Assembly (NCBI GenBank): GCA_948468595.1
Contig: CAOKIU010000004.1
Coordinates: 1,988-65,987 of the forward strand
DNA length: 64,000 nt
Origin: an uncultured Christensenella sp.
GTDB taxonomy: Bacteria; Bacillota; Clostridia; Christensenellales; UBA1750
Direction of reading: 5' to 3'
Below, piece by piece: positions 8,192 to 35,746 of this stretch (its first letter is position 1; each line of letters begins with the position of its first letter). The notes below the pieces were generated by a model. That model was not told the DNA's origin, did not search any database, and saw nothing but the letters and a program-made list of their open reading frames with translations. Made by a program: the position numbers and the translations under genes.

Positions 8192-8934
<743 letters not shown>

Positions 8935-8947
<13 letters not shown>

Positions 8948-9603
8948 TTGGCCGGCACCTGCCCATGCTGCTGGAGGGCTCGGGCGAGACGCTCTACATC
9001 ACCTTCGCTTCCGCGTTCTTAGCTTACTTGATCGGCGTGCCGCTGGGCATCGCCCTGATCGTAACCGACAAGGGCGGCCTCCGCCCGCAGCGCGCGTTTA
9101 ACGCGGTGCTGGGTTGGATCGTCAACATCGGGCGCTCCATTCCCTTCATCATCCTCATGCTGGTGATCTCCCCGCTCACGCGCCTGATCGTGGGCCGTGC
9201 CTACGGCACCAACGCCACCATCGTGCCGCTGGTCATCGCCGCGGCGCCCTTTGTGGCCCGAATGGTGGAACAGTCCTTAAAGGAAATTGATCAGGGCGTG
9301 GTGGAGGCGGCCCGCACCATGGGCGCCACCAATTTGGAGATCATTTGGAAGGTGCTCTTGCCGGAGTCCGTTCCCTCGCTCATCCGCGGGGCGGCCGTGA
9401 CCATCATCACCTTGGTCGGCTATTCCGCCATGGCCGGCGCCGTTGGCGGCGGCGGATTGGGCGATATCGCCGTTCGGTACGGAATGCACCGCTACGAATA
9501 CGACGTGATGATCCTGACGCTGGTGCTCATCGTCATCATCGTCCAGGTCATACAGGTGGTCTTTGACCTCATTGCCAAAAAGATTGATAAGAAAGTCAAA
9601 TAA
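8935..9603 (+). CDS. metI: Methionine ABC transporter permease
   Basis: Polytopic membrane protein with MetI-type EAA region EAARTMGATNLEIIWKVLLPES. The ATG overlaps the metN 3' end and follows GGGAGG. Confidence 0.9.
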
Positions 9604-9621
9604 ACAGGAGGAATGTCATTT

Positions 9622-10431
9622 ATGAAGCTCGCAAAGAAAATCGCCGCTTTGGTTCTGGCGCTTGCGCTGATGCTGTCGCTGACGGCCTGCACCGGCGGGA
9701 ACAAGGAAAAGAAGCTGGTGGTGGGCGCCTCGCCCGCGCCGCACGCCGAGATCCTGGAGTTTGTCAAGCCCATCCTGCAAGAAAAGGGCATCGTTCTGGA
9801 GATTGAGGAGTTCACCGACTACGTGCTGCCCAATCAGGCGCTGGAGGCCGGGGACCTGGACGCCAACTACTTCCAGCACTACCCCTATCTGGCCAACTTC
9901 AACGAGAACAACAAGGCGAATCTCGTCTCCGCCGCCGCCATTCATTTTGAGCCCCTGGGCATTTACGCCGGCAAGAGCGCGGACCTGAACGCCATTCCCG
10001 ACGGCGCGACCGTAGCGGTCCCCAACGACGCCACCAACGAGGCGCGCGCGCTGCAGCTGCTCGCCGCGCAGGGCATCATCACCCTGCCCGAGGGCGCGGG
10101 TCTCAACGTCACTGCCCGCGATGTGGTGGAGAACCCCCACAACCTGGAGTTCTTGGAGATTGCCGCCGAGCAGGTGCCCCGCACGCTGGTGGATGTGGAC
10201 TTTGCCGTGGCCAACGGCAACTACGCGCTGGAGGCCGGCATCACCGACAAGCTCCTTGTGACGGAGGAAAAGAACTCCGAAGGCGCGCAGACCTACGCCA
10301 ACATCATCGCGGTCCGCGCGGGGGATGAGAACCGCGAGGAGATCAAGACCCTGGTAGAGGTCCTTCAGTCCGAAGAGGTTCGCGCCTTCATCACCGAAAA
10401 ATACGGCGCCAACGTCATCCCGGTGTTCTAA
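9622..10431 (+). CDS. metQ: Methionine-binding lipoprotein (NlpA/MetQ family)
   Basis: Second in-frame ATG chosen: AGGAGG at 9605-9610 is only 2 nt from the ATG at 9613 but 11 nt from the one at 9622. MKLAKKIAALVLALALMLSLTAC lipobox, then GASPAPHAEILEFV...ANYFQHYPYL, typical of MetQ. Confidence 0.9.
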   Translation: MKLAKKIAALVLALALMLSLTACTGGNKEKKLVVGASPAPHAEILEFVKPILQEKGIVLEIEEFTDYVLPNQALEAGDLDANYFQHYPYLANFNENNKANLVSAAAIHFEPLGIYAGKSADLNAIPDGATVAVPNDATNEARALQLLAAQGIITLPEGAGLNVTARDVVENPHNLEFLEIAAEQVPRTLVDVDFAVANGNYALEAGITDKLLVTEEKNSEGAQTYANIIAVRAGDENREEIKTLVEVLQSEEVRAFITEKYGANVIPVF

Positions 10432-10463
10432 ATCCGCGAAAGAAACGGGACCAACAGTCAAAT

Positions 10464-10495
10464 AATTTTGCTCGGCCTTACCGGCCGGGCAAAAT
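10464..10495 (+). other. Stem-loop without U-tract between metQ and the lipoprotein gene
   Basis: AATTTTGCTCGGCC-TTAC-CGGCCGGGCAAAATT, a ~14-bp stem with no downstream T-run and no room for a promoter before 10535. Possible mRNA processing or stability element rather than a terminator. Confidence 0.35.
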
Positions 10496-10534
10496 TGGCG
10501 ATATGCCACAAAAATTGAAGGAGGATGTTTCCCA

Positions 10535-11140
10535 ATGAAAAAGCTCATGTCCGTTTTGCTGTCTGTACTGCTCCTTGTGTCCCTGACCGCCTGCTCCCAG
10601 GGCGCCAAGCTCGAACGCGGCGCGTGGGACGGCACAACCTTCACCAACACGTTCTCCGGCATCACCATGACCATCCCCAACACCGAAGAGTGGACCATCG
10701 CCTCTGAGGAGGATTTGGCCGCGCTGATGGACATTGCTTCCGATACGATGGAGGATGCCAACAAGCTGCAAGCCGCTCTGGCCAAGATCCAGACCGTTCA
10801 GGATATGATGGTGCAGAACGCCACCACCGGCTCCAGCGTTGTGCTCATGTATGAGAACCTGTCCCTGCACGGCGTTGGCTCCAGCTACACGGCTGAGGAT
10901 TTCGCCAAGGAAGTGGAAACCGGCCTGAAGAACAACACGCAGATCTCCTACACCCTTAAGGACAACTATACCACGACCCTTTGCGGCAAGGAGTACGTCG
11001 TTGTGCCCACCGAGGTTCCGGACTACGGCATGAACCAGAGCTACCTGATGCGCCGTGAGGGCAACTACATGGTGGAAATCATCCTCACCGGCCTGGGCCA
11101 GGAGTCCATTGACGAGCTGCTGGGCATGTTCGCCGAGTAA
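10535..11140 (+). CDS. Lipoprotein of unknown function
   Basis: GAAGGAGG RBS. MKKLMSVLLSVLLLVSLTAC is a signal peptide plus lipobox. The rest is hydrophilic with no family I recognise. Confidence 0.75.
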   Translation: MKKLMSVLLSVLLLVSLTACSQGAKLERGAWDGTTFTNTFSGITMTIPNTEEWTIASEEDLAALMDIASDTMEDANKLQAALAKIQTVQDMMVQNATTGSSVVLMYENLSLHGVGSSYTAEDFAKEVETGLKNNTQISYTLKDNYTTTLCGKEYVVVPTEVPDYGMNQSYLMRREGNYMVEIILTGLGQESIDELLGMFAE

Positions 11141-13971: not shown

Positions 13972-15084
13972 ATGAGGATACTGCATACGTCGGATTGGCA
14001 CCTGGGCCTGGACTTCTATGGCGTTTCCCTTTTGGAGGAACAGCGGCGCATGATCGATGAGATCGCTCAGATCGCCGTGGATGAAGGGGTGGCCGCGGTG
14101 CTGGTGGCGGGGGATATTTTTGACCGCGCGGTGGTCGCGCCGGACGCCATCGCGCTTTACAACTATGCCATGCGCCGCCTCTGCTTGGAGGCGCGCCTGC
14201 GCGTGATCCTGTGCGCGGGCAACCACGACGGCGCGGCGCGCCTGTCCTCCTTGAGCGACCTGCTCCGGCGCGCCGGCCTGTACATCTTTGGCCGCGTGGG
14301 CGAGCGGGATGACCAGGTGGACCTGGGCGAGGCTGTGGTGCACGTGCTGCCCTATGTCCATACCGACGACGTGCGCATCGCCTATCCGCAGGAGCAGGAG
14401 CGCATTGCGTGCGCCGCCGACGCCATGCGCATTGCCCTTGATCACCGCAGGCCGGAGAAGGGGGATGGAAGGCGGCACATCCTCATGGCGCACTGCATTG
14501 CCGCCGGCGGGCGCACCGGCCAGAGCGACCGCGCGGCGGCGGTGGGCGGTGCGCTCGCCGTGCCCACGACGCTGTTTGCCCCCTACGACTATACCGCCCT
14601 GGGGCATTTGCACCGGCCGCAGACCCTTTCCGGCGCGCCGGTGCGGTATTCCGGCACGCCGCTGTGCTACTCCTTTGCCGAAGCCGACCAGGAAAAGAGC
14701 GTCACGCTTTTGGATACGGAGGATATGTCCTGGCGCGCCGTGCCGCTGCACCCCCTGCACAAGGTGCTTAGGGCCCAGGGCACGATGGACGAACTGCTCA
14801 TGGGGGAATCGGAGGACTACATGCATCTGACCGTCCTGGACGAGCCTGCCACCGCCAGCGTGCAGGACGAGCTCAGGCGGCGCTACCCCCGCGCGCTGCT
14901 CATCGAGAGCGGGCGGCGGGAGATCATGGGCGCCGCGCCGATGCTCACAATGGAGGAGGCCGAGAGCGACTCTCCCTTGCGCATCGCGGAAAAATTCTAC
15001 CTATATAAGACCGGCATGGAGATGGACGAGGAGCAGCGCGCCTGGTTCCAGACCGCCATTGAGCGCGCCGAGAGGGAGGGATGA
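13972..15084 (+). CDS. sbcD: Exonuclease SbcD (Mre11-type nuclease subunit)
   Basis: Phosphoesterase motifs MRILHTSDWHLG, VAGDIFD and CAGNHDG. Directly followed by sbcC. Confidence 0.9.
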   Translation: MRILHTSDWHLGLDFYGVSLLEEQRRMIDEIAQIAVDEGVAAVLVAGDIFDRAVVAPDAIALYNYAMRRLCLEARLRVILCAGNHDGAARLSSLSDLLRRAGLYIFGRVGERDDQVDLGEAVVHVLPYVHTDDVRIAYPQEQERIACAADAMRIALDHRRPEKGDGRRHILMAHCIAAGGRTGQSDRAAAVGGALAVPTTLFAPYDYTALGHLHRPQTLSGAPVRYSGTPLCYSFAEADQEKSVTLLDTEDMSWRAVPLHPLHKVLRAQGTMDELLMGESEDYMHLTVLDEPATASVQDELRRRYPRALLIESGRREIMGAAPMLTMEEAESDSPLRIAEKFYLYKTGMEMDEEQRAWFQTAIERAEREG

Positions 15085-15087
15085 CCG

Positions 15088-18000
15088 GTGCTGCCCATTT
15101 GCTTGACGTTGCAGGCCTTCGGGCCGTATCTGGAGGAGCAGACCGTGGACTTTACGCGCCTTTCCGATCGCTTTCTCATCTGGGGGGAGACGGGCGCGGG
15201 CAAGACGGCGCTGCTGGACGCCATGACCTGCGCGCTGTATAACCGCGCCAGCGCCCAGGATCGCGGCGGCGTCTACGACCTGCGCTGCCAGCTTGCCCCC
15301 GCGCAGCAGGAGACGCGCATTGACTTTTTGTTCGCCGTCCGCGGCAGGCGCTATCGCTTTTGGAAGCGCTTAAGGCCGGTGAAGCGGCGCAAGGCTGATG
15401 ACGATGTGCGCAAGAACTACAATTTGGAGTGCGGCGCGGTGGAACTCCTGCCGGACGGCACGGAGAGAAACCTGCTTCAGAGCGCCAAGCCCACCGCCCA
15501 GGAGGAGGCGGCCCAGTTCGTCATCGGCATGGGGTACAGCCAATTTGTGCAGGTGATGGTGCTGCCTCAGGGAAAGTTTGAGCGGTTCTTAACCGCGGAC
15601 TCCACCGAAAAGGAGAAAATCCTCAAAAACATCTTTCGCACCGATCGCTACAACGCCTATCAGGACGGCCTCAACCGCCTGTGCCGCGAACGCGAGGCCG
15701 AAACGCGGGAGGCGGAGCAGGCCGTAGCGGCGCAGTGGGCGGTATACGGCGCGGATAGCGCCGACGCCCTGCGCGCGCAGCTCAGCGGCGACGCCGAGGC
15801 GCTAGACGCCTTGGAGCGCGACGAGCGGGACAGCCGGGCGGGCTATGAACGCCTGAACGCCGAGACGCAGCGCGCGCAGCAGCTTCAGGAGCGGTTCGCC
15901 CGCCTGGACGCCGGCGAGGAGGCCCTGCGGGCGTTGACGGCGCAGGCCGGGGAGGTGAAGCGCCGGGAGGCGGCGCTTCAGGCCGCGGAGCGCGCGCTGT
16001 ATGTCGAGCCGCTTTACGCGCAGATGCAGCGGCTTGCCGCCGAGTGCAGCCAGGCCGGGCGGCGCGCCGTGGGCACAAAACGGCAGCTCGACCAGGCGCG
16101 GGCAGAGGAGCGGGCCGCGCAGGAGGCCCTTGCGTTGCTCAACGCCGAGCAACCCCGCGTAGAATCCTTGCGCCGGGAGGCAGGGCTGTTGGAGATGCGC
16201 CTGCCGGAGCTCATCGGCCTTGCGGCGGCGCGCAGCGCGCTCAAGGAAGCGCAGCGCCTGTGCGCGCCCGCGCAGCGGCGCTTTGAGGCGGAGACGCAAA
16301 GGGCGCGGGAGCTGTCCGCGCGCTTGGAGAACCGCCGCGGCCAGGCGCGGGAATTGGAGGAAAAGTACGTCTCCCGGTTGGTCGCGCTCAAGGAGAGCTG
16401 CGACGCCTACGCGCAGTCTAGGCGCGCGCACGCTCAGGCGCAGGACCTGCGCCAAAGGGCGGAGGCGGCGCGGCAGGCGCGCGCGCAGGCCCAGGAGGAG
16501 CGCGAGGCGGTCAGCGCACGCGTGGCGGAGCTCCTTGGGCAGGAGGCGGAGCGGGAGATGCAGTATTTCAGCAACGCCGCCTCCGAGTTGTCCAAACGGC
16601 TAAAGGAGGGCAAGCCCTGCCCGGTGTGCGGCAGCCTGCACCATCCCAACACGCGCCAGAGCGCGGGCTATTTGAACGCGCGGGAGAACTACCTTGCGGC
16701 GCGCAAGACCCTCCGATCCGCGCAGAAGGCGCTGACCGACGCCGCGGCCAAGAGCGAGGGCGCGGCGGAGCGAGCGCGCAGCCTGGAGGCCCAGGCCGAA
16801 GAGGCGGCGCGCGAGGCTTCCCGCTGCGTGCCCTACGACGAGGAAGCGGAGCGGTCGGCGCTCCAATCCTTGCGGGAGGCGCAGGAGAAAAACGCGCTCT
16901 GCGACGAATGCAAGCGCGAGGCAGTGGAGCTGGAGCGCGAGCTTCGCCGGGCGGAGCGGGAGGCGGCCAAGGCGCAGGAGGAGTACGGCGAGCGCACCGC
17001 GGCCGTGGAGCGCGCCCGCACGAAGCTGGAAGAAGGGGAGCGGCGCGCCGGGGCCACCGCGGAAACCGCCCAGCAGGCGCAGGAGCGGCTGGACGCGATG
17101 CGGCAGGCCGTCTCCCGCCACGAAGAGCGCGCCGAGCGCGCGCGCAAGCGCGGCGGCGAGGCGGAAAAGCAGTCCCTGCTCTGCGCGCGGCTGCATAAGG
17201 ACGCTTGGGAAGCGGCGCAGGAGCTTCAACAGCGGGCGGAGCGCGCGCGTGAAGCGTTCGCCGCGGCGGCAAAGGCGCGCGGGTTCGCCGGCGAGGAGGA
17301 CTTCCTGGCCGCGCTGCGCAGCGAGGAGGAGATCGCCGGCCTGCGCGGCGCGAGCGAAGAATACCAGCGCAGCCTCAGCGCCGCGCGCGCGGAGGCGGAG
17401 GCTGCCCGCAAAGCCGTGGACGGCCAACAGCGGCCCGACCTTGACCGGCTTATGCGGGCGCGGGAGGAGAGCCTTGCGCGATGCAACGCCGCTGCCGCGG
17501 CCGCGGGGGCGCAGCGCGCGCTGTTGGAGAACAAGCGCAAGGCGCTGGTGAAGACCGAGAAGGACGGCGAGAAGGCGCGCGCCCTTCGCCGCGCCTGCGA
17601 CAAGATGCGCGCCTTTGCCGAAACCTTTGCCTACAGCAAGGGCGTTACGCTCTCCAGCTTCGTGCTCTCGGCCATGCTGGCGCGCGTGGCCGAACAGGCC
17701 AACTACCTGTTGGAGCGGGTGCATGGGGGGCGGTACCGGCTGGCCATCTGCCAGGCGTCCAGCCGCGCGAAGCTGGACGGGTTGGAGCTGAAGGTGCTGG
17801 ACGCCTATTCCGGCGGGGAGCGCGATGTGCGCACCCTTTCGGGCGGGGAGAAGTTTCTGGTCTCCCTTACGCTGTCGCTGGGGCTGTCGGCTGTGGTGCG
17901 CGCGCAGACGGGCGGCATCTCCATGGAGGCCATGTTTATCGACGAGGGTTTTGGCACCCTGGACCCCCGCTCCATCAAGGACGCGCTGGACGTGCTTGCG

Positions 18001-18123
18001 CGCATCGGCAGCGGCGGCAAGGTGGGCATCATCTCCCATGTGGAGGTCCTGCGCGAGAACGTCTTGCAGGGCGTTGAGGTGATCAAGGGCGATAAGGGCA
18101 GCAAAATCGCCCTCCACACCTGA
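15088..18123 (+). CDS. sbcC: Exonuclease SbcC (Rad50-type ATPase subunit)
   Basis: GTG start 3 nt after the sbcD stop. Walker A GETGAGKT, long Ala/Glu/Arg-rich coiled coil, zinc hook CPVCGSLHHP, signature LSGGEKFLVSLTLSLGL, Walker B MFIDEGFGTLD. Confidence 0.9.
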   Translation: MLPICLTLQAFGPYLEEQTVDFTRLSDRFLIWGETGAGKTALLDAMTCALYNRASAQDRGGVYDLRCQLAPAQQETRIDFLFAVRGRRYRFWKRLRPVKRRKADDDVRKNYNLECGAVELLPDGTERNLLQSAKPTAQEEAAQFVIGMGYSQFVQVMVLPQGKFERFLTADSTEKEKILKNIFRTDRYNAYQDGLNRLCREREAETREAEQAVAAQWAVYGADSADALRAQLSGDAEALDALERDERDSRAGYERLNAETQRAQQLQERFARLDAGEEALRALTAQAGEVKRREAALQAAERALYVEPLYAQMQRLAAECSQAGRRAVGTKRQLDQARAEERAAQEALALLNAEQPRVESLRREAGLLEMRLPELIGLAAARSALKEAQRLCAPAQRRFEAETQRARELSARLENRRGQARELEEKYVSRLVALKESCDAYAQSRRAHAQAQDLRQRAEAARQARAQAQEEREAVSARVAELLGQEAEREMQYFSNAASELSKRLKEGKPCPVCGSLHHPNTRQSAGYLNARENYLAARKTLRSAQKALTDAAAKSEGAAERARSLEAQAEEAAREASRCVPYDEEAERSALQSLREAQEKNALCDECKREAVELERELRRAEREAAKAQEEYGERTAAVERARTKLEEGERRAGATAETAQQAQERLDAMRQAVSRHEERAERARKRGGEAEKQSLLCARLHKDAWEAAQELQQRAERAREAFAAAAKARGFAGEEDFLAALRSEEEIAGLRGASEEYQRSLSAARAEAEAARKAVDGQQRPDLDRLMRAREESLARCNAAAAAAGAQRALLENKRKALVKTEKDGEKARALRRACDKMRAFAETFAYSKGVTLSSFVLSAMLARVAEQANYLLERVHGGRYRLAICQASSRAKLDGLELKVLDAYSGGERDVRTLSGGEKFLVSLTLSLGLSAVVRAQTGGISMEAMFIDEGFGTLDPRSIKDALDVLARIGSGGKVGIISHVEVLRENVLQGVEVIKGDKGSKIALHT

Positions 18124-26736: not shown

Positions 26737-26917
26737 CAAAATGCCTCCTTGCCGTTGCTAGCGATTCATGTCGCTGCATATAGTGTTCTGCGCGGCGCTG
26801 TACAAGTCCTTGTTTTCCCGTCCCTTCGCCCTCTTTCCCGGCTTGTTTGTTGTATCCCAAAGCAAGATGGAATTGTTTGTTTTTCACGCCAAAAAAATAC
26901 ACTTCTCTCCAACAGTG

Positions 26918-26957
26918 TTGACAGTCACTTAACAAAATGATACGCTTTTTGTACTAT
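26918..26957 (+). promoter_or_regulatory. Promoter region of the seven-gene envelope operon (two alternative sigma-A registers)
   Basis: Register 1: TTGACA (26918-23), 17 nt, TACGCT (26941-46). Register 2: TTAACA (26929-34), 17 nt, TACTAT (26952-57). Either register puts the track's ATG at 26937 inside the promoter. Confidence 0.5.
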
Positions 26958-27053
26958 GGGGTCCCATCGGGAGCGCGGTTTTACGTGTTGGGCCGCGGGA
27001 AGTCGACGATGGACCTTTGGCAGGGGCAGAAATCGGAAAGGGCGGTAGGGTGT

Positions 27054-28034
27054 ATGCGCGTGCGCAAGAGGCTTTTTTGCGGGAATCAAACCCGCCCAAG
27101 GGCTTTGGCGAAATCCGGCTGGCTGTATGCGCTTACGGCGGTGCTGTGCGCAGCGCTGCTGTTTGCAACGCCGAGACTTTTCGCCCAGCGCACCCAGCCC
27201 CTTGCGCCCTCAAGCGACGCGGGACTGTTCTCCTGGAGCGCGGAGGAGGTCAATAAGACCGATGGAAAGCTCTTCTCCCTGATGAAACAGGAAAAACTGA
27301 ATGTTTTGTACCAAAGTTTTTCCGACAAGAACAGCCGGCAGGAGCAGATGTCCATCTTTGTGGAGACGGCGATGGAGGAGGGCATAAAGGTCTATCACCT
27401 GACCGGGGACCCCTCCTGGGGAACGGACCCAAAGGGAGAGAGGCTCTGCCAGGCCGTGGAGGAGGCGAACGCCTATAACCGCCGGATCAAGCGAAAGTTC
27501 CTGGAGCGGCGGGAGAAGGACGGCCAAAGGTGGAAAGAAATTCCGCAGCTTGCGGGGATTGTCTTTGATGTGGAGCCCTACATCCTGAAGGAGTGGGATA
27601 AAGATCCGGAAAAGGTTATGAACAGCTTTGTCTCCGGGATGAAAGCCGCATACGCTCTGGCGCAGGACTATGGATTGGAAGTCATCGTCTGCGTGCCCTG
27701 GCACTATGATCAAAACGGGCAGCAGGGAGGCTTGGAGGAGCTGATCAAGAGCGGCTGCGACAGCATCGCGGTGATGAACTATTATCGCGGTTCGGAAATC
27801 AAAAACATCGCCACGGAAGTGGAATTGGTGAAGAAATACTGCAAGGGGCTCATCACCATCTATGAGCTGCAAGAGGCGGACGGCCGAGGCGTGAGGGAAA
27901 TCAACACCTACGCAGGCTGCGGGCTTGACGCCGTGAAAAAGAACTACGATGGCGTCAGGGAGGCCTATCCGGAGCAAAGGATCTCCCTGGCCTATCACGA
28001 TTACCGGGCCTTGAAGGGAATGTTGGAAAGGTGA
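27054..28034 (+). CDS. Membrane-anchored extracytoplasmic TIM-barrel-like protein, putative glycoside hydrolase-like (DxE motif)
   Basis: Start uncertain (ATG at 27009 or 27054, both in frame with ORF 26937..28034). Basic head plus one TM (WLYALTAVLCAALLFATPRLF). The body alternates hydrophobic strands and helices and carries LAGIVFDVEPY, which resembles the GH18-type DxxDxDxE strand. The stop overlaps the next gene's GTG. Confidence 0.6.
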   Translation: MRVRKRLFCGNQTRPRALAKSGWLYALTAVLCAALLFATPRLFAQRTQPLAPSSDAGLFSWSAEEVNKTDGKLFSLMKQEKLNVLYQSFSDKNSRQEQMSIFVETAMEEGIKVYHLTGDPSWGTDPKGERLCQAVEEANAYNRRIKRKFLERREKDGQRWKEIPQLAGIVFDVEPYILKEWDKDPEKVMNSFVSGMKAAYALAQDYGLEVIVCVPWHYDQNGQQGGLEELIKSGCDSIAVMNYYRGSEIKNIATEVELVKKYCKGLITIYELQEADGRGVREINTYAGCGLDAVKKNYDGVREAYPEQRISLAYHDYRALKGMLER

Positions 28035-28726
28035 ATGAAGTTCTTCGGCAGGAGAGGAAGTTTCTCATCGGCCTGCCTGACTACTATCAGTTCAGCGGCA
28101 ATCTGGCCAAGGTCATGATGGAGGACCCGCACAACCGCGGCGACGGATACCCCATCCGCTCCCTCTACTTTGACTCGCTGGAGGACCGGGACTTTCAGGA
28201 GAAGCTGGACGGCGTATCGATTCGCCGCAAGATCCGCCTAAGGTGCTACGGCCCGGGCAGCGACTTTGCCCTGCTGGAGGTCAAGCAAAAAGAGGCGAAC
28301 CTGCAAAAAAAGCGCTCCCTGCGCCTTCCGCGCGCGGCGGCCGCCCGCCTGACCCAGGGGGATTACAGCCCGCTGCTGACCTGCCCGGAGCCCCTGGCCC
28401 AGGAATGCTACGCCCTGATGAACATCCATGCCTACCGGCCCCGCTCCGTGGTGGAATACCGCCGGAGGGCTTTCATTGCCAAGGAGAACAAGATCCGCGT
28501 CACCTTTGATCACCACATCGTGGGGACGGAGAGCCATTACGATATTTTTGACAGTGCGCTCAACCAATACCCCCTTCAGGACCCGTCGCTGGTGGTGCTG
28601 GAGGTCAAGTACAACGGCTTTCTGCTGAGCTATATCAAGGATATGCTCCGCGATTGTGCGACCGGCGAAATATCCGTCAGCAAATACGGCCTGAGCCGGT
28701 CGGTCAGCAAGCACATTGATTTTTAA
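28031..28726 (+). CDS. VTC-domain (CYTH/triphosphate-tunnel, polyphosphate-polymerase-like) protein
   Basis: GTG at 28031 overlaps the upstream stop (GTGA). Tunnel-type alternating charged strands: QERKFLI, IRSLYFDS, IRRKIRLRCY, LLEVKQKE, VEYRRRAFI, IRVTFDHHI, VVLEVKYNG. No TM segment. Confidence 0.75.
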   Translation: MNEVLRQERKFLIGLPDYYQFSGNLAKVMMEDPHNRGDGYPIRSLYFDSLEDRDFQEKLDGVSIRRKIRLRCYGPGSDFALLEVKQKEANLQKKRSLRLPRAAAARLTQGDYSPLLTCPEPLAQECYALMNIHAYRPRSVVEYRRRAFIAKENKIRVTFDHHIVGTESHYDIFDSALNQYPLQDPSLVVLEVKYNGFLLSYIKDMLRDCATGEISVSKYGLSRSVSKHIDF

Positions 28727-28744
28727 ATCTAGGAGACATAGACC

Positions 28745-29422
28745 ATGAGAGAGTATCTAGCCCAGATCATCGCGGAAAGCGGGAGCCTCACTGCGCAGGA
28801 GGTCGTGCTGCATATCGCCGCCTCGGCGGTGCTGAGCATCGCCATTTACGTTTCCTACTGGTATACCCATGCGGGCACGGCCTACAGCAAAAAATTCAAT
28901 GTGTCGCTCATGACCCTCACCGTCCTTACCGCCACCGTTATGACGGTCATCGGCAACAACATCGCCCTGTCCCTTGGCATGGTGGGCGCGCTGTCCATCG
29001 TGCGCTTCCGCACGGCCATCAAGGACTCCAGGGACACGGCCTACATCTTCTGGACCATTATTGTGGGCATCTGCTGCGGCGTGGGGGACTACCTGGTGGC
29101 CGGCGTGGGCACGGCCGTGGTGTTTATCATCCTGATGGTCCTGGGCCGGGTGCGGAATGAAAACCGCATTTTGCTCATCATTCGGGGCGCGAAGGAGAGA
29201 AGCGCGGACATGGAGCGCCTGGTCTTCTCCTATTTTAACAAGCGCGCCCTCTTGCGCGTGCGCAACACCACGGCGGAGCATGTGGAGCTGATCTACGAGA
29301 TGCCCCGGCGGATCTGGCAGTTAAACTACCGCAAGGATGTGGATATTTCCGACGCGCTGTACGCCCTGGGCGGCACGGAGTATGTAAACACCGTGACCCA
29401 GAGCGACGAGATTAGCGGGTGA
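28745..29422 (+). CDS. DUF4956-like polytopic membrane protein
   Basis: TAGGAGA RBS. About five hydrophobic segments (VVLHIAASAVLSIAIYVSYWY, VSLMTLTVLTATVMTVIG, LGMVGALSIVRF, AYIFWTIIVGICCGVG, LVAGVGTAVVFIILMVLG) plus a ~90-aa soluble tail. Family assignment is from memory of the VTC/DUF4956/CotH neighbourhood. Confidence 0.65.
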   Translation: MREYLAQIIAESGSLTAQEVVLHIAASAVLSIAIYVSYWYTHAGTAYSKKFNVSLMTLTVLTATVMTVIGNNIALSLGMVGALSIVRFRTAIKDSRDTAYIFWTIIVGICCGVGDYLVAGVGTAVVFIILMVLGRVRNENRILLIIRGAKERSADMERLVFSYFNKRALLRVRNTTAEHVELIYEMPRRIWQLNYRKDVDISDALYALGGTEYVNTVTQSDEISG

Positions 29423-30963
29423 CGGCCGTGCGGCGCGGCATGGTGGTCATGGCGGGCGTGGCGGCGTGCATCCTGCTGCTGTCCCTCCTGTTTCAGGACA
29501 TGGGAGACCGAACGGGCGTGATGCGGTATCAGCAGCACCGCGCGCAGCCATCGGAAGAGGAGCTGGGCCGCTGCGCGGTTTGCGGCGGAGCGGGGCAGCT
29601 GTGCACCCATCTGCCCATCATCCGCATTGAGACGGGCGGCAAGACCATTCCGGGACGCCCCTATGAGGGAGAGAACGGCGATACGGCGGGCTATTACGCA
29701 GGGGAAGACGGGGAGGAGGAAATCTTAGTCCGGTTTTCCACGGTGTCGGAGGAGGGCGTTTGGCACCACGCGGACGATGCCGCAACCGAGGAAGGCGAGG
29801 CCCTTTTCCGCTACCGGGGCAACAGCTCCCGCTGGTTTGCCAAGGGCAACTTCCGCCTCAGAACCGTGGAGGATGGAAACCCGGAGCAAAGCCGGAAAAT
29901 GGGTCTGCTGGGGATGAAGAGCGGCAAGGAATGGTCCCTGCACGGACCCTTTTTGGACAAGACGCTGATGCGGAACTACCTTTGCATGAACCTCTCGGCG
30001 GAGGTGACGGGCGAATGGACGCCGGACGTGCGCTTTTGCGAGGTGCTGCTGGACGGGGAGTATCAGGGCGTCTACCTGCTGACGGAGACCATCGACGTGG
30101 ATGAAAACCGGCTGGCCCTGCACGAGTATGCGCCGGGGGACCCGGTGATGAGCTACCTGGTCCGCATTGAACCCCGCACCAACCCGGAAAAGGTGTTGGA
30201 CAATTTCACCCTCTACTCCTACCGGATGGAGCCGGGGCGGAATTTGGAGCTCTTGTACCCGGGGACCATCAACCAAACCCAGCAAGTGCGCTCCTACGTT
30301 CAGGCCGACTTCAACGAGGTGGAGCGGATGCTCTATTCCGTGGAGATGCTGGACGGCTCCGACGCCTGGCAACAGGTATTGGACATGGATTCCTTTGTGG
30401 ATTACTATATCCTGATGGAGTTTTTCGGAATCAACGATACCTTTGGCGCCTCGACCTACTTTTACCGGGATGCCCGGGGCAAGCTGTGCATCGGTCCGGT
30501 ATGGGATTACAACAATGCCCTTGACAACAACTTTTTGCGGCCTAGCTCCAGCCGCGAATTCCTGATCTCCCAGAGAGGGTGGTATGCAAAGCTGATGCAG
30601 GACGAGGATTTTGTGGAGCGGGTGATCACCCGCGACCGGGATTTGCGCAAGGGCGTTCTTTCCGAGGCGCGCCGTGTTGCCGATGAAAAGGAGGTGCAGG
30701 CGTGGCTGGGCAGCGCCGTGGACCGCAACTTCTCCGTCTGGGGCTATTCGTTTAACCCGGATATGCTCACGAGCCACGAGCGCCATCGGCCTTATCCGGA
30801 AAGCGGCGAAACCCTGCGGGATGTGAACCCCTCCAGCTATGAGGAGGCGGTGGAATGGATGATGGAGTACATGATCGACCGGGGGCAGTGGATGGATGAC
30901 CACATCGAATCCCTGCGGCAATACAGCCACCCCTCCAGGGTTGCCAATCAGACGCTGGGGTAG
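29419..30963 (+). CDS. CotH-family atypical kinase, N-terminally membrane-anchored
   Basis: GTG overlaps the DUF4956 stop (GTGA). Signal anchor RRGMVVMAGVAACILLLSLLF. CotH blocks FRYRGNSSRWFAKGNFRL, WSLHGPFLDKTLMRNYL, CEVLLDGEYQGVYLLTE, FYRDARGKLCIGPVWDYNNALDN. Confidence 0.8.
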   Translation: MTAVRRGMVVMAGVAACILLLSLLFQDMGDRTGVMRYQQHRAQPSEEELGRCAVCGGAGQLCTHLPIIRIETGGKTIPGRPYEGENGDTAGYYAGEDGEEEILVRFSTVSEEGVWHHADDAATEEGEALFRYRGNSSRWFAKGNFRLRTVEDGNPEQSRKMGLLGMKSGKEWSLHGPFLDKTLMRNYLCMNLSAEVTGEWTPDVRFCEVLLDGEYQGVYLLTETIDVDENRLALHEYAPGDPVMSYLVRIEPRTNPEKVLDNFTLYSYRMEPGRNLELLYPGTINQTQQVRSYVQADFNEVERMLYSVEMLDGSDAWQQVLDMDSFVDYYILMEFFGINDTFGASTYFYRDARGKLCIGPVWDYNNALDNNFLRPSSSREFLISQRGWYAKLMQDEDFVERVITRDRDLRKGVLSEARRVADEKEVQAWLGSAVDRNFSVWGYSFNPDMLTSHERHRPYPESGETLRDVNPSSYEEAVEWMMEYMIDRGQWMDDHIESLRQYSHPSRVANQTLG

Positions 30964-30977
30964 GAAGGAAAACGGGA

Positions 30978-33122
30978 ATGAGACGATTTGTAACAGCGGC
31001 GGTGCTGCTGTTGGCCATTGCCCTTGGCGCGTATTACGCCGTCTTCTACGGCGGGCTCTACCTGCGCCTTGGAAAGGGGGAGGCGGTGGACCTGCCCTTC
31101 CGCGCGGAGGGAACGGAGCTTCAGCGTTGGAACGGACAGGACTATGCCGCGCTGACCCTGCGCGGCGTGGATGTATCCGCCAGCATGCCGGGGCACTACG
31201 CCACCGCCTATGACGCCGGGGAGGAGGATTACCTCCGTTGGTTTGAGGCCATCGGCGAAATGGGGGCCAACGCCGTTCGGGCGACCAATGTGATGAACGA
31301 CGATTTTTACAACGCCCTTTATGCCTATAACACCACCCATGATCAGCCCTTGTACCTGCTTCAGGGCACCAACATCAGCGACGATGTGGGCGACGGCGCC
31401 AAGGACGCTTATGTCGATGGCTTTCTCGGCGCGCTGATTGAGGACGGCAAAAACCTGGTGGATATCGTCCACGGGCGGAAAAACCTTCCCGCCGTCGGGA
31501 TTCGGAGCGGCGGCGTGTACCGAAAGGACGTCTCCCCCTGGGTGGTGGGGTTTCTTGTGGGGACGGAGTGGTATCCCGATACCATCTCCTATACGGACCA
31601 CAGCACCATCCGATCCGGCGCTTTTGAGGGGACGTACTTCCAAACGACGGCCGATGCCACGCCCTTTGAGGCGGCGATGGCGCAAGTCATGGAGGCGATC
31701 ACCGCCTATGAGACGGATAAATACGGCGCGCAGCGGCCCATCGGGTTTCTCTGCGATCCTTCCTGCGACTTTCTCGAGTATGAGGAGGTCTACGCCCGCC
31801 AGCTGAGCAAGCACGCGCAGGCCGACCCGGAGCATGTCACGCCCACGCCCTCGATGGCGGCGGGATGCTTTGCCGCCTACCGGCTCTTCCATTTTTGCGA
31901 TACGTTTGCGCAGCGCCTTTCCAGCGCGCAGCAACAGGCCATTGCGCCGCTCCTTGAGGGACTGCCCACCGAACAGCCTTACGGCGGTTATCTTAAGCTG
32001 TTGACCCGATACCATACCATGCCGGTGCTGGCCGCAGGCTACGGCGTTTCCTCCAGCCGCGGCGCCGTGGTGCAGGATAAGGAGCCTCTGACGGAGAAGC
32101 AGCAGGGGGAGCGCTTGGTCGAAATCAGCCGGACGCTGGAGGACGACGGCTGGGCGGGGGGCTTCATCTCCACCTGGCAGGACGAATGGGAGCGCAGGAG
32201 CTGGAACACGGCCTTTGCCACAGTGCCAACGGAGAACTATCTTTGGCACGATTTGCAGACGGAAAGCCAGGGCTATGGCCTGATGGCTTTCGCCCCGGGG
32301 GCGCAGGCGACCTGCACCCTGGATGGGAACCCCGATGAGTGGACGGCCAAGGACCTCCTCCTGGAGCGGGACGGGCTGCGCCTGTCGGCCCGCTACGACG
32401 CCGAGGGCGTATACCTGCTGGTGGAAGGGATGGACCAGCAGGAGGCGCTTTACCTGCCCCTGGATGTGTCGCCGGAGGTGGGGAGCCGCTCCTCGGATCG
32501 CCCTGCGCTGACATTTGCGCGGGAGGCGGATCTTCTCCTCTGCATTGACGGGGCGGAAGACACCCGGCTGCTGGTGCAAGAGCGCTTCGACCCCCTGCGG
32601 GAGCGGTTTCTCAACGAGACAGAGGGCGTGGACCCCTTTCTGTACTTCCCAAAGAAGGAGAGCAAATCCTTTGTGTCCCTGGGCATGGCGATGCAAAACA
32701 CCCTGCTGGTGGAGGAGCTCAACCCCAAGACCCGCGCCCTTCAGCGCCTGAAGGTGTGGGAGACGGGAAAGCTGGTCCACGGAAACGGGGACAGCCAATC
32801 GGCGGAGTATAACTCTCTGGCCGACTTCTGCTTTGGAGAGGGGTGCGTGGAGATTCGCCTCCCTTGGCTGCTGCTGAACGTGGGCGACCCTTCCTCCATG
32901 ATGGTCCATCGGGACTATTACGCGCATTATGGCGTGGAGTTTCAGTCGGTTGAGAGGATTTGGATTGGGATGGCCCGTCAGGGCGACCAGGGCGAGATTC
33001 CCATGGAGGCGCTGCGGCTCAGGGGCTGGAAGCGCGTAGAGTACCGGGAGCGGCTGAAGGAGAGCTACTACGTCGTGCAGGCGGCTTGGAAAGGGGGCGG
33101 CCAGAATGCAGCTTCCGGTTAA
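30978..33122 (+). CDS. Membrane-anchored 714-aa protein with clan GH-A-like TIM-barrel region and C-terminal beta-rich domains, function unknown
   Basis: GGAAGGAAAA RBS. Signal anchor AAVLLLAIALGAYYAVFYGGLYL. LRGVDVSASMPGHY..YLRWFEAIGEMGANAVRATNV..VVGFLVGTEWYP..VLAAGYGVSSSRG..GGFISTWQDEW. Confidence 0.65.
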   Translation: MRRFVTAAVLLLAIALGAYYAVFYGGLYLRLGKGEAVDLPFRAEGTELQRWNGQDYAALTLRGVDVSASMPGHYATAYDAGEEDYLRWFEAIGEMGANAVRATNVMNDDFYNALYAYNTTHDQPLYLLQGTNISDDVGDGAKDAYVDGFLGALIEDGKNLVDIVHGRKNLPAVGIRSGGVYRKDVSPWVVGFLVGTEWYPDTISYTDHSTIRSGAFEGTYFQTTADATPFEAAMAQVMEAITAYETDKYGAQRPIGFLCDPSCDFLEYEEVYARQLSKHAQADPEHVTPTPSMAAGCFAAYRLFHFCDTFAQRLSSAQQQAIAPLLEGLPTEQPYGGYLKLLTRYHTMPVLAAGYGVSSSRGAVVQDKEPLTEKQQGERLVEISRTLEDDGWAGGFISTWQDEWERRSWNTAFATVPTENYLWHDLQTESQGYGLMAFAPGAQATCTLDGNPDEWTAKDLLLERDGLRLSARYDAEGVYLLVEGMDQQEALYLPLDVSPEVGSRSSDRPALTFAREADLLLCIDGAEDTRLLVQERFDPLRERFLNETEGVDPFLYFPKKESKSFVSLGMAMQNTLLVEELNPKTRALQRLKVWETGKLVHGNGDSQSAEYNSLADFCFGEGCVEIRLPWLLLNVGDPSSMMVHRDYYAHYGVEFQSVERIWIGMARQGDQGEIPMEALRLRGWKRVEYRERLKESYYVVQAAWKGGGQNAASG

Positions 33123-34215
33123 GGGCGTAATTTACTTTTACATGTTCATTTGCGTCGCCCTGTTGGTGTTTAACCTGCTCTATATCTGCCGCGCCGATCA
33201 CGTCAAGCGGCGGCAGCAGCGCAAAAGCCAGCGCTGGGAGGCGTATCTGGACGGCGTGAAGAAGGGCGGAAAGCCCGCATGGAGCCGGAGAAAGCTGTTT
33301 CGCATGCTGCGCAACAGTCAGGAGCTCATGGCCCTCTATGCGGCCGCAGAGGGCCGGGACCAGGCGGAGATCGAGGCCGTCTTTCGGCAAAATCGCTCGC
33401 TGTTTGTGGAACTGGCGCAGGATTACGGGAAGAAGGCCCCCATGGAGCGAGCCTTTTTCGCCTATGTGATCGCCGCCTTTTATCCGGCCGTAGGGGACAA
33501 GCAGGACCCGCTGCTGGAGATCCTTCTCCGCTACCTGGATGACTCCACAGTATACTGCCGGGAAAATGTGCTCCACGCCCTGTATACTTTGGGAAACATG
33601 CAGGCGGTGGAGCACGCCTTCGTCCTGATGAGCCAGCGGGAGTGGTATCACGACCCCAGGCTCCTGGCCGATGGGCTGAACCGGTTTCAGGGGGAGCGGG
33701 AGAAGCTGGCCGGCAGGCTTTGGAGCCGCAGAAGGGATCTGATCGAGTGTTACCAATCGGGCGCCATTCGCTTTGCCGACGCGCTGCCCGGGGACGATTT
33801 TGTAGAGGACTTCCTGGAGGCGCTCAAGACCGAGACGCTTCCCACGGAGACGCAGTTTGCGCTGGTGCGGTATTTTCGCCGCCATGCCGACCCGCGCGCA
33901 AAACCGGAGCTGCTTAGGCTGCTAAAGGAGCAGGTGGAGGGAAGGCGGGAGCTGGCCATCGCCGCGGCCGCGGCCCTCTCCTCTTATCCGGACGGGGAAA
34001 CCCGGCAGGCCCTCAAAGAGGCGCTCCGCAGCCGCAATTGGTATGTGCGGCAGAACGCGGCCCGCTCCTTAAAGGCGATGGGCGCCACCTGGGAGGAAAT
34101 TCAGGCCGAAATAAAGGGAGACCGATACGCGACGGAGATGCTGGAATACGTCTATGGCGTCCAGCCTGCCGGGGCGCAAGGCGGAAAGGAAAGCGAGGTG
34201 CATAAGGCGGTATGA
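33106..34215 (+). CDS. Membrane-anchored HEAT/PBS-lyase-repeat protein
   Basis: The ATG overlaps the upstream gene by 17 nt. One N-terminal TM (VIYFYMFICVALLVFNLLYI) followed by basic residues. Helical repeats ending ...LAIAAAAALSSYPDGETRQALKEALRSRNWYVRQNAARSLKAMG. Confidence 0.7.
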   Translation: MQLPVKGVIYFYMFICVALLVFNLLYICRADHVKRRQQRKSQRWEAYLDGVKKGGKPAWSRRKLFRMLRNSQELMALYAAAEGRDQAEIEAVFRQNRSLFVELAQDYGKKAPMERAFFAYVIAAFYPAVGDKQDPLLEILLRYLDDSTVYCRENVLHALYTLGNMQAVEHAFVLMSQREWYHDPRLLADGLNRFQGEREKLAGRLWSRRRDLIECYQSGAIRFADALPGDDFVEDFLEALKTETLPTETQFALVRYFRRHADPRAKPELLRLLKEQVEGRRELAIAAAAALSSYPDGETRQALKEALRSRNWYVRQNAARSLKAMGATWEEIQAEIKGDRYATEMLEYVYGVQPAGAQGGKESEVHKAV

Positions 34216-35636
34216 ACGAGGTGATGATTCAAATTCTGCGTGTGGTGGAAGTGTTTTTTCTGCTGTATCTTCTGCTTTACGCCTCCTATCTGTTCCTGTC
34301 CGTGGCCATGGGCGCCTGGCGGCTTTACCGCCTGGACCGGATGCGCGCCATCAAAAACGAACTCAAGCATGAGTTCTACTTTCCCGTCTCCATCCTGGTG
34401 CCTGCCCACAACGAAGAGGTCACCATTTTGGACAGTGTGCTCTCCTTGCTGAAACTGGACTACCGGCTCTATGAGATTATCGTCGTGGACGATGGGTCCG
34501 GGGACGACACAAGCAAGGTGCTCATCGATCACTTCCACATGAAGGAGGTTCGCCGTCCCATCCGGAGGAGCATCCCCTGCAAACACATCGTGGCCATTTA
34601 CGAGGCGCCGGATACGCGCGTTCGGCTGACCCTCCTGCGGAAGGAAAACGGGGGCAAGGGCGATGCGCTCAACGCCGGCATCAACGCCTCCCAGTATCCC
34701 TATTTTCTCTGCATTGACGCGGATTCCATGCTTCAGTGGGATTCGCTGGAGCGCATCGCCCAGCCGGTGATGGAGGATGACGACGTGGTGGCGGTGGGAG
34801 GGTTGATCCGCATCGCGCAGTGCATAACGGTGGATTGGAAGGAGGGCGGCGATCTCAAGCAGGGGCTGAGTTATCACCTGCCTTGGAACTTCCTGACCAG
34901 CATGCAGGTCATGGAGTACGACCGGTCCTTCCTGGCCTCCCGCATACTGATGGACAACTTCAACGGCAACCTAATCATCTCCGGCGCTTTTGGCCTGTTT
35001 AAAAAGAGCGTGGTCATTGCCGCCGGCGGCTACGCCACCGACGTGTTGGGCGAGGACATGGAACTGGTGGTCAAGCTGCACGCCTACTGCCGCAACAACA
35101 TGGAGAAGTATTCCATCCGCTACGAACCCAATGCGATTTGTTGGAGCCAGGTCCCCTCGACGATGACGGACCTCTTCAAGCAGCGCCGCCGGTGGCATAT
35201 CGGTTTGTTTCAGTGCATCACGCGGTATGGCTTTATGTTCATGAAATCGCGCTTCGGAATGGTGGGCACCGCATCCTACCTCTACTATCTGCTCTATGAG
35301 CTGTATTCGCCCATCATTGAATTGGTGGGGTTGATTGCGACGATCGCGGCGGCGCTGGTGGGCCTGCTCAATTTCACCTTCATGGTCCAATTCTACCTGC
35401 TCTTTGCGCTCTACAGCTCCATTTTGACCATCACCGCGTTCTTTCAGCGGATCTACACGCAAAATGTCCGTTTGAGTTCGCGGGATGTGTTCCGCGCCTG
35501 CGTCATGTGCCTGATCGAGAACGTCTTCTTCCGATTTGTCTTTGACTTTATCCGCCTTAGCGCGTTTTTCAGCTACCGGAAAAACAAGGGAACTTGGGGA
35601 AAAATCAAGCGCGTGCAGCAAAGCCAGGCGCAATAG
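34212..35636 (+). CDS. Processive family-2 glycosyltransferase (synthase type, PgaC/IcaA/BcsA-like core with flanking TM helices)
   Basis: ATGA overlap with the HEAT gene. N-terminal TMs, then ILVPAHNEE, IIVVDDGSGDDT, GGKGDALNAG, LCIDADSM (DxD), ISGAFGLFKK, QRRRWHIG (QxxRW), then several C-terminal TMs. Confidence 0.85.
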   Translation: MNEVMIQILRVVEVFFLLYLLLYASYLFLSVAMGAWRLYRLDRMRAIKNELKHEFYFPVSILVPAHNEEVTILDSVLSLLKLDYRLYEIIVVDDGSGDDTSKVLIDHFHMKEVRRPIRRSIPCKHIVAIYEAPDTRVRLTLLRKENGGKGDALNAGINASQYPYFLCIDADSMLQWDSLERIAQPVMEDDDVVAVGGLIRIAQCITVDWKEGGDLKQGLSYHLPWNFLTSMQVMEYDRSFLASRILMDNFNGNLIISGAFGLFKKSVVIAAGGYATDVLGEDMELVVKLHAYCRNNMEKYSIRYEPNAICWSQVPSTMTDLFKQRRRWHIGLFQCITRYGFMFMKSRFGMVGTASYLYYLLYELYSPIIELVGLIATIAAALVGLLNFTFMVQFYLLFALYSSILTITAFFQRIYTQNVRLSSRDVFRACVMCLIENVFFRFVFDFIRLSAFFSYRKNKGTWGKIKRVQQSQAQ

Positions 35637-35707: not shown

Positions 35708-35746
35708 CGGCAGCCGGTGGGGATATGTCTTCCCCGCCGGCTGCCG
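35708..35746 (+). other. Very stable 16-bp hairpin (possible terminator or RNA-stability element)
   Basis: CGGCAGCCGGTGGGGA-TATGTCT-TCCCCGCCGGCTGCCG (one G-U pair), followed by CGTTGATTTG. Confidence 0.5.

Follow-up and report, generated by a model that had tools for sequence, protein, structure and literature searches.

The 64,000-nucleotide stretch of DNA analysed here (the window; positions 1,988 to 65,987 of contig CAOKIU010000004.1, assembly GCA_948468595.1), from an uncultured Christensenella sp., carries an open reading frame (ORF) for a protein of the CotH family as the fourth gene of an operon. This ORF (29419-30963, +; 514 amino acids (aa), GTG start) encodes an enzyme of CotH fold that has one anchor helix, at its N-terminus, and the protein is a fixed, near-obligate component of a conserved module formed with a VTC-domain protein, a putative polyphosphate (polyP) polymerase, and a DUF4956 membrane protein. 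Thousands of bacterial CotH-family proteins have export signals, and to our knowledge the only characterised members act inside the Bacillus mother cell. The phosphodonor supply of an extracytoplasmic kinase is a question that this module could address, and the module may show how bacteria power a kinase on the outside. We tentatively propose, with confidence somewhat short of even, that the trio constitutes one pathway delivering phosphoryl groups from cytoplasmic ATP via polyP to an extracellular target.

The genes for VTC (28031..28726, +; 231 aa), DUF4956 (28745..29422, +; 225 aa) and CotH are adjacent and co-oriented within 28031-30963, with overlapping or nearly abutting ends. The GTG start of CotH (29419-29421) overlaps the TGA stop (29420-29422) of the DUF4956 ORF, the DNA reading gcgGGTGAcg, as the original prediction, made from the sequence alone, had described; the other elements named in that prediction likewise lie where it placed them. 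Seven co-directional genes arranged in the same tight manner span 26937-35636 (+) and make up one operon, in the order unknown ectoprotein, VTC, DUF4956, CotH, glycoside hydrolase (GH)-like ectoprotein, HEAT protein and PgaC-like glycosyltransferase of family GT2.

That the product, which begins MTAVRRGMVVMAGVAACILLLSLLFQDMGD, belongs to the CotH family is borne out by both profile and fold. Pfam CotH (PF08757) covers residues 131-492 and profile positions 2-322 of 322 at E 1.8e-51 (176 bits against a cut-off of 23.8). The AlphaFold2 (AF2) model, computed from an alignment of 47 orthologues, reached a predicted local distance difference test score (pLDDT) of 85.6 and a predicted template-modelling score (pTM) of 0.85. 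Its top Foldseek matches were the B. cereus CotH structures 5jda/5jd9 (5jda at E 5.4e-15, probability 1.00, template-modelling score for the target 0.73), followed by PI3K, HipA and Fam20C, all of kinase-like fold, the Fam20C match being marginal at E about 0.02. Model comparison thus assigns to the window protein the atypical protein-kinase-like fold of B. cereus CotH. In the sequence comparisons phmmer, the first profile and hhalign against 5jd9 covered the N-lobe only, and full length was reached with a broader profile of 100-odd family representatives.

How firmly is this gene tied to its neighbours? A CotH-centred scan with one genome per species found a relative encoded in 259 genomes, from which 79 loci were retrieved and their ORFs searched with the seven window proteins. 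Matches were found to CotH in 79 loci, to DUF4956 and the GH-like protein in 76 each, to VTC in 73, to HEAT in 72 and to GT2 in 69, every miss being explained by a contig end; the order VTC, DUF4956, CotH, GH-like, HEAT, GT2 on one strand was collinear in 79/79 loci. Among the operon hosts are Oscillospiraceae, Lachnospiraceae, Christensenellaceae, Anaerovoracaceae, Syntrophomonas, Acetobacterium, Erysipelotrichaceae (Dubosiella muris) and Coriobacteriaceae. The entire seven-gene operon is also present on the 67-kb plasmid NZ_CP059541 of Planococcus maritimus (locus L080, 4470-12824), an aerobic, non-sporulating member of the Bacilli, which indicates horizontal mobility of the operon and makes this species a tractable host.

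The vegetative polysaccharide context envisaged in the original prediction is upheld by this conservation, which extends to non-sporulating lineages. The 79 loci share no consistent sporulation neighbour, several of their hosts do not sporulate, and there are no spore-coat genes among the neighbours of the operon at 18-40 kb in the window. A spore-coat CotH is cytoplasmic, encoded beside its CotG/CotB substrates, and found in sporulating Bacillales. The window protein departs from this description because it has an anchor helix, has VTC, DUF4956, GH-like, HEAT and GT2 neighbours in 79/79 loci, and belongs to an operon that occurs in Coriobacteriaceae, Dubosiella and Planococcus. The sporulation reading of this CotH is excluded.

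A second test, centred on DUF4956 in metagenomes, returned at least 598 relatives, and 80 loci were kept. VTC lies within 4.5 kb of DUF4956 in 68 of the 80; another 11 are cut by a contig end, and in locus L155 VTC follows a very large CotH gene. CotH was found within 5 kb of DUF4956 in 52 loci by iterative search and in one more, L157, by Pfam only (1.3e-16), which amounts to 53 of the 54 evaluable loci. These adjacency counts are lower bounds, because the CotH hidden Markov model (HMM) and jackhmmer both missed the divergent 860-aa CotH of L157. The gene order within the trio varies (VTC-DUF4956-CotH in 35 loci, CotH-VTC-DUF4956 in 5, CotH-DUF4956-VTC in 2 and DUF4956-CotH-VTC in 1), the genes sharing one strand throughout. 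Of the evaluable VTC-DUF4956 pairs, only that of locus L163 lacks CotH. There the gene that follows (8599-10683) encodes a 695-aa beta-helix protein of the carbohydrate-binding Cthe_2159 type, with transmembrane segments at both termini and an acidic Pro/Glu/Met-rich tail, which could be an alternative outer partner. In L157 a family-I inorganic pyrophosphatase with a signal-peptide-like N-terminus (8609-9265; Pfam 2.8e-33) directly follows the trio, a single instance, and a small signal-bearing ORF next to it (9222-9821) contains the motif EVYFDTP, resembling a triphosphate-tunnel strand; together they hint at phosphoanhydride chemistry outside the cell.

The trio is not bound to the operon of the window. 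It stands alone, in the order CotH-VTC-DUF4956, on a megaplasmid of Deinococcus taeanensis (L081, 7896-10706), with oxidoreductase and acetyltransferase genes as neighbours and no glycosyltransferase nearby; on Pseudobutyrivibrio pNP95 it lies in a cluster of GT2, GT4, acyl- and pyruvyl-transferase genes, and it occurs in Nonomuraea as well. The trio thus extends over Bacillota, Actinomycetota and Deinococcota, and the evidence is that of a portable module, mostly recruited to glycan loci. Linkage that outlasts rearrangement and change of host locus is good evidence that VTC, DUF4956 and CotH work together. The coupling of CotH to the pair is well supported, and the three proteins would in all likelihood act in one pathway. 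The suggestion that VTC and DUF4956 are functionally tied to CotH was part of the original prediction, and the near-obligate trio surviving changes of gene order is the strongest new support for it.

The active site of the window protein can be read against that of characterised relatives. A recent review describes the CotH active site through the equivalents of protein kinase A (PKA) D166, N171 and D184, with adenine held between Tyr142 and Trp245 (2025; PMC12189002), and B. subtilis CotH is inactivated by D228Q and by D251A (PMC7821199). In the window protein the motif IGPVWDYNNALDN comprises W362 D363 Y364 N365 N366, at the place where the B. cereus chain has IPWDYDATWG. The form WD.D, which the original prediction gave for CotH, is correct for Bacillus, as is WDYN for the window. 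The catalytic segment D340-x4-S345 ... W362 D363 Y364 N365 N366 (30436..30516, +) lies in ungapped register with B. cereus D-x4-N ... WDYD; the spacing from Asp to Asp is 23 residues in both proteins, and this register agrees with the full-length profile alignment. Mapped in this way on the chain of the Bacillus structure, D340 aligns with the Asp of B. cereus NFDG (equivalent to PKA D166 and B. subtilis D228), and D363 with the first Asp of WDYD (equivalent to PKA D184 and B. subtilis D251, metal-binding). The profile alignment places Y246 (30154..30156, +) at Tyr142 and W362 at Trp245 of B. cereus, and the residues of the adenine sandwich are thereby preserved.

The equivalent of PKA N171 is S345, Ser instead of Asn, and Ser is found at this position in 78/79 genome orthologues. 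As far as can be judged from the alignments, this exchange in the catalytic loop is the single departure from the canonical residue set, and N365/N366 may make up for the lost Asn. D340, S345, D363, Y246 and W362 are all invariant in the 47-sequence orthologue alignment, and 78 of the 79 genome orthologues show the pattern D-x4-S-x16-WDxNN. WDYN is not a lesion, being constant in its own clade (78/79) and of the commoner form among the 150 nearest family representative clusters (WDxN in 87 against WDxD in 51, with Ser at D+5 in 89). WDxN was also considered as a mark of trio-linked, polyP-using CotH proteins and was rejected, the trio-linked CotHs of Deinococcus and Pseudobutyrivibrio having WDxD.

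Replacement of the N171 equivalent by Ser and of WDxD by WDxN speaks for a non-catalytic surface protein, an adhesin or scaffold that needs only the fold, as proposed for the Mucorales CotH invasins; fungal CotH proteins are reported to act as surface ligands. However, D340, D363, Y246, W362 and N365/N366 are invariant from Coriobacteriaceae to Erysipelotrichaceae, and most members of the extracellular branch (89/150) have likewise lost the Asn, which is no pattern of decay. We consider a non-catalytic role very improbable. The window CotH is no obvious pseudokinase and this worry, raised by the original prediction, is largely removed: with the two validated Asp residues and the Tyr and Trp of the adenine sandwich in place, the enzyme is probably active.

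The side of the membrane on which this activity would be deployed is predicted from the N-terminus. The expected basic head and single helix are present: a signal-anchor helix at residues 7-25 (29437..29493, +; Kyte-Doolittle 2.58) follows R5 R6, is the sole hydrophobic segment of the protein and is trailed by a flank of net charge zero. The AF2 model places a helix at residues 2-29 and a low-confidence linker at 26-33. Of 118 full-length orthologues, 116 have a hydrophobic segment at the N-terminus, and in 100 of these its N-side is the more basic one; such a segment also occurs in 118/123 broader CotH representatives. An uncleaved signal anchor is most likely, because the N-terminus has no AXA-type cleavage site and its lipobox look-alike is not conserved; a lipoprotein reading of V-A-A-C17 was rejected, as the Cys is not conserved and the hydrophobic run extends beyond C17. 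It is thus highly probable that the CotH domain is extracytoplasmic (N-in/C-out), in agreement with the topology assumed from the outset. The inverted arrangement (N-out/C-in), which would make CotH a membrane-tethered but otherwise ordinary ATP-using kinase with a cytoplasmic catalytic domain, might draw on the two Arg residues (R31, R36) that the C-terminal flank of the helix also bears. Against it stand R5 and R6 before the helix with a net-zero flank behind, the more basic N-side in 100/116 orthologues, the extracellular modules or signal peptides of many CotH relatives, both among those examined here and in published work (PMC12345266; PMC8250860), and the same type of anchor in the GH-like neighbour, whose glycosidase fold is expected outside. 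We regard the inverted topology as extremely improbable.

Between the anchor and the kinase fold lie two short segments. The Cys patch CAVCGGAGQLC, which the original prediction had singled out, is present at residues 52-62 (C52-x2-C55-x6-C62, followed by T63 H64; 29572..29604, +), but it is only partly conserved: C52 and C55 vary among the orthologues, C62 is kept in about 90% of them and H64 in all. The juxtamembrane segment RY(H/Q)QH..QPSE (residues 36-47, 29524-29560) is strongly conserved although it lies ahead of the kinase fold, with Q39 and H40 invariant and R36 nearly so; CotH may touch DUF4956 or the synthase through this segment.

The two partners differ in how closely they resemble known proteins. 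The VTC-domain protein is soluble (Pfam VTC, PF09359, 2.1e-38). The first searches of the PDB with it gave nothing useful, and a more diverse profile was needed to reach Vtc4: the profile of diverse bacterial VTC proteins matches the yeast Vtc4 catalytic domain 3g3q at 5.4e-11, and also 8i6v and 7ytj. In the native numbering of 8i6v, K10, R69, R71 and K85 align with Vtc4 K200, R264, R266 and K281, and Y143, R145 and E191 with Y359, R361 and E426; none of them varies within the bacterial family. By profile match and by the tunnel residues K200, R264, R266, K281 and E426, the window protein appears to be a triphosphate-tunnel enzyme of the Vtc4 type. We take these Vtc4 residues to be functionally important, as was reportedly demonstrated by Hothorn et al. 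in 2009. Coupling of polyP synthesis to translocation through a transmembrane domain of its own is not a property of the window protein, which has no such domain. DUF4956 (Pfam 1.5e-14) has 4-5 transmembrane segments and a C-terminal soluble domain, which follows RVRNENR and is predicted inside from hydropathy and flanking charges. The protein is very strongly conserved: its motif GALSIVRFRTAIKDSRD (GALS-IVRFR-TAIKD-SRD) contains R87, R89 and D97, which do not vary across Firmicutes, Actinobacteria and Bacteroidota. Its sole outside similarity is a weak, sub-threshold match to MgtC.

What could be the route of phosphoryl groups to the outer face? By analogy with the yeast VTC complex, VTC would make polyP from ATP at the inner face of the membrane and DUF4956, probably an oligomer with its invariant Arg residues at the cytoplasmic mouth, would pass it across; we hold this step to be plausible without quite reaching even confidence. 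The CotH ectodomain might spend the phosphoanhydride supply, directly or by recharging a bound adenine nucleotide, on a target outside the cell, which is the more doubtful step. The target would be a nascent polysaccharide or a matrix or surface component and not a spore protein, a glycan being possible rather than probable. The single chemical steps, with polyP as the donor and a glycan as the acceptor, are inference. That CotH consumes the export of the pair is argued most strongly by the near absence of VTC and DUF4956 without it, whereas polyP as the direct donor meets its strongest objection in the invariant adenine pocket. A nucleotide bound by CotH and recharged from polyP would, we speculate, reconcile both. 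Taken as a whole, a trio that carries phosphoryl-transfer potential across the membrane, with VTC polymerising, DUF4956 threading the polymer out and a CotH ectokinase phosphorylating exopolysaccharide (EPS) or surface targets, is a rather unlikely reading.

Several points weigh against such a pathway. The invariant adenine-sandwich residues suggest nucleotide binding and an ATP-type donor, not a site for polyP only, and with Ser at the N171 position metal binding may differ. DUF4956 is unrelated to the transmembrane domain of yeast VTC, which leaves ‘synthase plus channel’ an analogy, and the topology of CotH is a prediction. No fusion of VTC with DUF4956 or DUF4956 with CotH, nor any other among the three, was found in the 80 DUF4956-centred loci. 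The trio of Deinococcus has no glycosyltransferase nearby, so that a glycan acceptor is not required, and the operon of the window has neither a deacetylase nor a known phospho-sugar signature. Our literature search, finally, turned up no biochemical work on VTC or DUF4956 proteins of bacteria or on secreted CotH proteins.

The adenine pocket would be accounted for if CotH were an ATP-dependent ecto-protein kinase, using released or extracellular ATP, or acting before or during export, on Ser/Thr of surface, matrix or EPS-machinery proteins and regulating polymer output, while VTC/DUF4956 polyP served in parallel as a phosphate/cation store or matrix polyanion. Both catalytic Asp residues and the sandwiching Tyr and Trp (PMC12189002) are invariant, the only characterised CotH enzymes are all protein Ser/Thr kinases (PMC7821199), and regulatory phosphorylation was suggested by Whitfield et al. 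(PMC7112168). What this leaves unexplained is why VTC/DUF4956 is nearly never found without CotH (53/54 evaluable loci), why the linkage survives shuffling of gene order, and where ATP would come from outside a Gram-positive cell; moreover, the operon encodes no substrate with CotB/CotG-like Ser/Lys/Arg repeats. We judge such a kinase to be a serious alternative, albeit an improbable one.

The obligate trio would also suit a CotH that handles polyP itself. The exported polymer could be the product, for instance an anionic cross-linker for a cationic hexosamine polymer, with CotH capping it, setting its length or attaching it covalently to polysaccharide or wall. Two trio contexts use Pel or a PgaC-like GT2, from which hexosamine polymers are expected (PMC7112168), the C. 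perfringens locus NELoc-2 often has a polysaccharide deacetylase (PMC11677781), and a secreted pyrophosphatase stands beside the trio in L157. Yet this role does not need the conserved nucleotide pocket, a polyP transferase of kinase fold is without precedent, the Deinococcus trio lies away from any synthase, and no deacetylase is found in the window operon. It appears to us an unlikely option.

The remaining operon members give the setting of the trio. The 714-aa GH-like protein (30978..33122, +) is membrane-anchored and folds into a TIM barrel and a beta-sandwich (AF2 pLDDT 92.3). It has no Pfam, NCBIfam or PDB sequence match, even as a profile and across nine orthologues, and is identified by fold only: its model is of the clan GH-A type, with Foldseek matches to GH157 (best, 9g4n at 1.8e-12) and GH2 glucuronidases. 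About 324 unnamed homologues exist, and the protein may stand for a glycoside-hydrolase family, so far unclassified, that serves this EPS system. The 369-aa HEAT-repeat protein (33106..34215, +; Pfam HEAT_2 4.4e-11) has a transmembrane segment at residues 7-25 followed by KRRQQRK, and its repeats are predicted cytoplasmic. Natural fusions of the GH-like and HEAT proteins (L006, 11556-13985; P0323 and P0324, 810 aa) make sense only if the GH-like C-terminus and the HEAT N-terminus share the outer side, which fits the predicted in/out pattern, and imply joint action of both proteins across the membrane. The multi-transmembrane GT2 (34212..35636, +; 474 aa) is a synthase-type, PgaC/IcaA-like enzyme (Pfam Glycos_transf_2 1.4e-24, Chitin_synth_2). 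Its best NCBIfam match is TIGR03937 PgaC_IcaA at 154 bits, below the cut-off of 422.3, indicating a related protein and no equivalog.

GT2 is the sole glycosyltransferase among the seven operon proteins, and these have no Pel-family or CE4 match that would reveal a PelF-type GT4, PelG, PelD/E or a PelA deacetylase. With its synthase, cytoplasmic partner and extracellular glycosidase-like protein, the operon looks like a synthase-dependent EPS system bearing the VTC/DUF4956/CotH trio. Gene 1 (26937..28034, +; 365 aa) is its variable member, with a homologue upstream in only 25/79 loci, although it is present in the Planococcus plasmid copy; the product has no Pfam or NCBIfam match and consists of one transmembrane segment (about residues 60-83) and an ectodomain. 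Its annotated start puts about 39 residues before the basic stretch and transmembrane segment, and the true start is probably the internal M40, near 27054. One N-terminal anchor, with basic residues ahead of it, is common to the gene 1 protein, CotH and the 714-aa protein, and their large domains are accordingly predicted outside.

A promoter-like site (26755..26784, +; TTGCTA-18-TATAGT, 9/12 matches, a match to the consensus only) lies upstream of the operon in the intergenic gap after a divergent amidohydrolase gene. A terminator-like hairpin (35708..35746, +) with a 16-bp stem, 13 G-C pairs and a weak T-run begins 72 nt past the GT2 stop. A search of Rfam for riboswitches and other RNA elements gave no match in the operon or ahead of it. 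Around it, at 18-40 kb, lie genes for a GH36 alpha-galactosidase, Sir2, a methyltransferase, a PMI-like protein, the amidohydrolase, a UvrD helicase, an aminotransferase and a nucleoside phosphorylase (PNP). The peak of 71.5% G+C at 16-18 kb is explained by SbcD-like (370 aa) and SbcC/Rad50-like (1011 aa) genes at 13972-18123, the long Ala/Arg/Glu-rich coiled coil of the latter driving the composition; this is ordinary.

The trio has been recruited repeatedly to polysaccharide loci, among them a necrotic-enteritis-associated locus of C. perfringens and the aggregation-driving Pel locus of S. intermedius, and it opens the donor question to direct test, with only three small proteins involved and hosts that can already be cultured. 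If the proposed pathway is true, CotH would be the first polyP-fuelled enzyme of protein-kinase fold, and the pair would be the first known match in bacteria to the VTC synthase-translocase of eukaryotes. Such a pathway would explain in general terms what energises the secreted kinases of bacteria, and it would assign functions to bacterial VTC-domain and DUF4956 proteins. It could also reveal phosphate-modified or polyP-associated biofilm matrices in gut anaerobes.

The association of CotH, VTC and DUF4956 and the operon itself have already been published, without a mechanism, and the locus is not of a new kind. The same gene series was listed by Lepp et al. (2010) for C. perfringens NELoc-2 without interpretation (PMC2879425), and at Pel loci of Gram-positive bacteria Whitfield et al. 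(2020) recognised an accessory block made up of cotH, a gene for a polyP polymerase, DUF4956 and DUF4832 (PMC7112168). In S. intermedius, a 2025 study in mBio reported the trio as not found outside Pel loci and suggested a link to phosphate metabolism (PMC12345266). The stand-alone, GT2-operon and Pseudobutyrivibrio loci contradict this confinement. What is new here is the GT2/HEAT/GH-like operon as a second, widespread host system of the trio, together with the stand-alone and heteropolysaccharide contexts, the quantified near-obligate linkage and the residue-level evidence on catalytic competence.

Each part of the system has a known counterpart from which it differs in a characteristic way. 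The CotH of B. subtilis and B. cereus (PDB 5JD9/5JDA) belongs to the same Pfam family and has the same fold, with the catalytic and metal-binding Asp residues in equal register and the adenine-sandwich Tyr and Trp shared, although the structurally aligned residues are only about 14% identical. Bacillus CotH lacks the anchor helix, acts on CotB and CotG in the mother-cell cytoplasm and shows HN...WDYD in place of S...WDYNN, whereas the window protein has an N-terminal extension of roughly 130 residues with the conserved juxtamembrane segment, and different gene neighbours. The xylose kinase Fam20B and POMK share with it a kinase-like fold in an extracytoplasmic compartment and set a precedent for sugar acceptors, but they draw on ATP imported into the Golgi/ER, and the likeness of the window protein to this group is marginal. 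In the yeast VTC complex, which joins the catalytic tunnel of Vtc4 to a membrane channel of Vtc1/2/3/4, the counterpart of the window VTC is the Vtc4 catalytic domain, with its key tunnel residues conserved, and a membrane partner is always encoded beside the bacterial protein. Unlike yeast Vtc4, bacterial VTC has neither an SPX domain nor a fused transmembrane domain, and DUF4956 is MgtC-like and not of the Vtc transmembrane family, so that coupled synthesis and translocation would hold here by analogy; the yeast complex has no CotH partner. The GT2 has the architecture of PgaCD/IcaAD (transmembrane segment, GT2 domain, C-terminal transmembrane bundle), the layout of processive synthases, but its partners are the HEAT and GH-like proteins, as opposed to PgaD/IcaD and PgaB/IcaB for the poly-N-acetylglucosamine synthases.

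The closest counterparts at the level of whole loci are two. The chromosomal NELoc-2 of C. perfringens (CP4_0459-0468) agrees in gene order and sizes, as judged from the published table only: a 348-aa protein, VTC of 230 aa, a membrane protein of 222 aa mis-annotated as ‘tubulin/FtsZ’, CotH of 497 aa, a hypothetical protein of 685 aa, HEAT of 377 aa and a glycosyltransferase of 466 aa (PMC2879425). In strain CP4, unlike the window, the VTC/membrane pair is duplicated around a resolvase, and the locus, re-annotated in a 2024 survey, includes sigma/anti-sigma genes and frequently the deacetylase (PMC11677781). The block SIR_1592-1594 of S. intermedius has the same three families side by side, tied to a synthase-dependent EPS locus, and its mutants affect EPS-dependent aggregation (PMC7112168, PMC12345266), deletion of the DUF4956 or the CotH homologue lowering both Pel production and aggregation (PMC12345266). 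Its CotH is likewise predicted to be secreted, with a C-terminal FN3 domain (PMC12345266), and the partner machinery, which consists of GT2, HEAT and GH-A-like proteins in the window, is pelDEADAFG and DUF4832 in S. intermedius.

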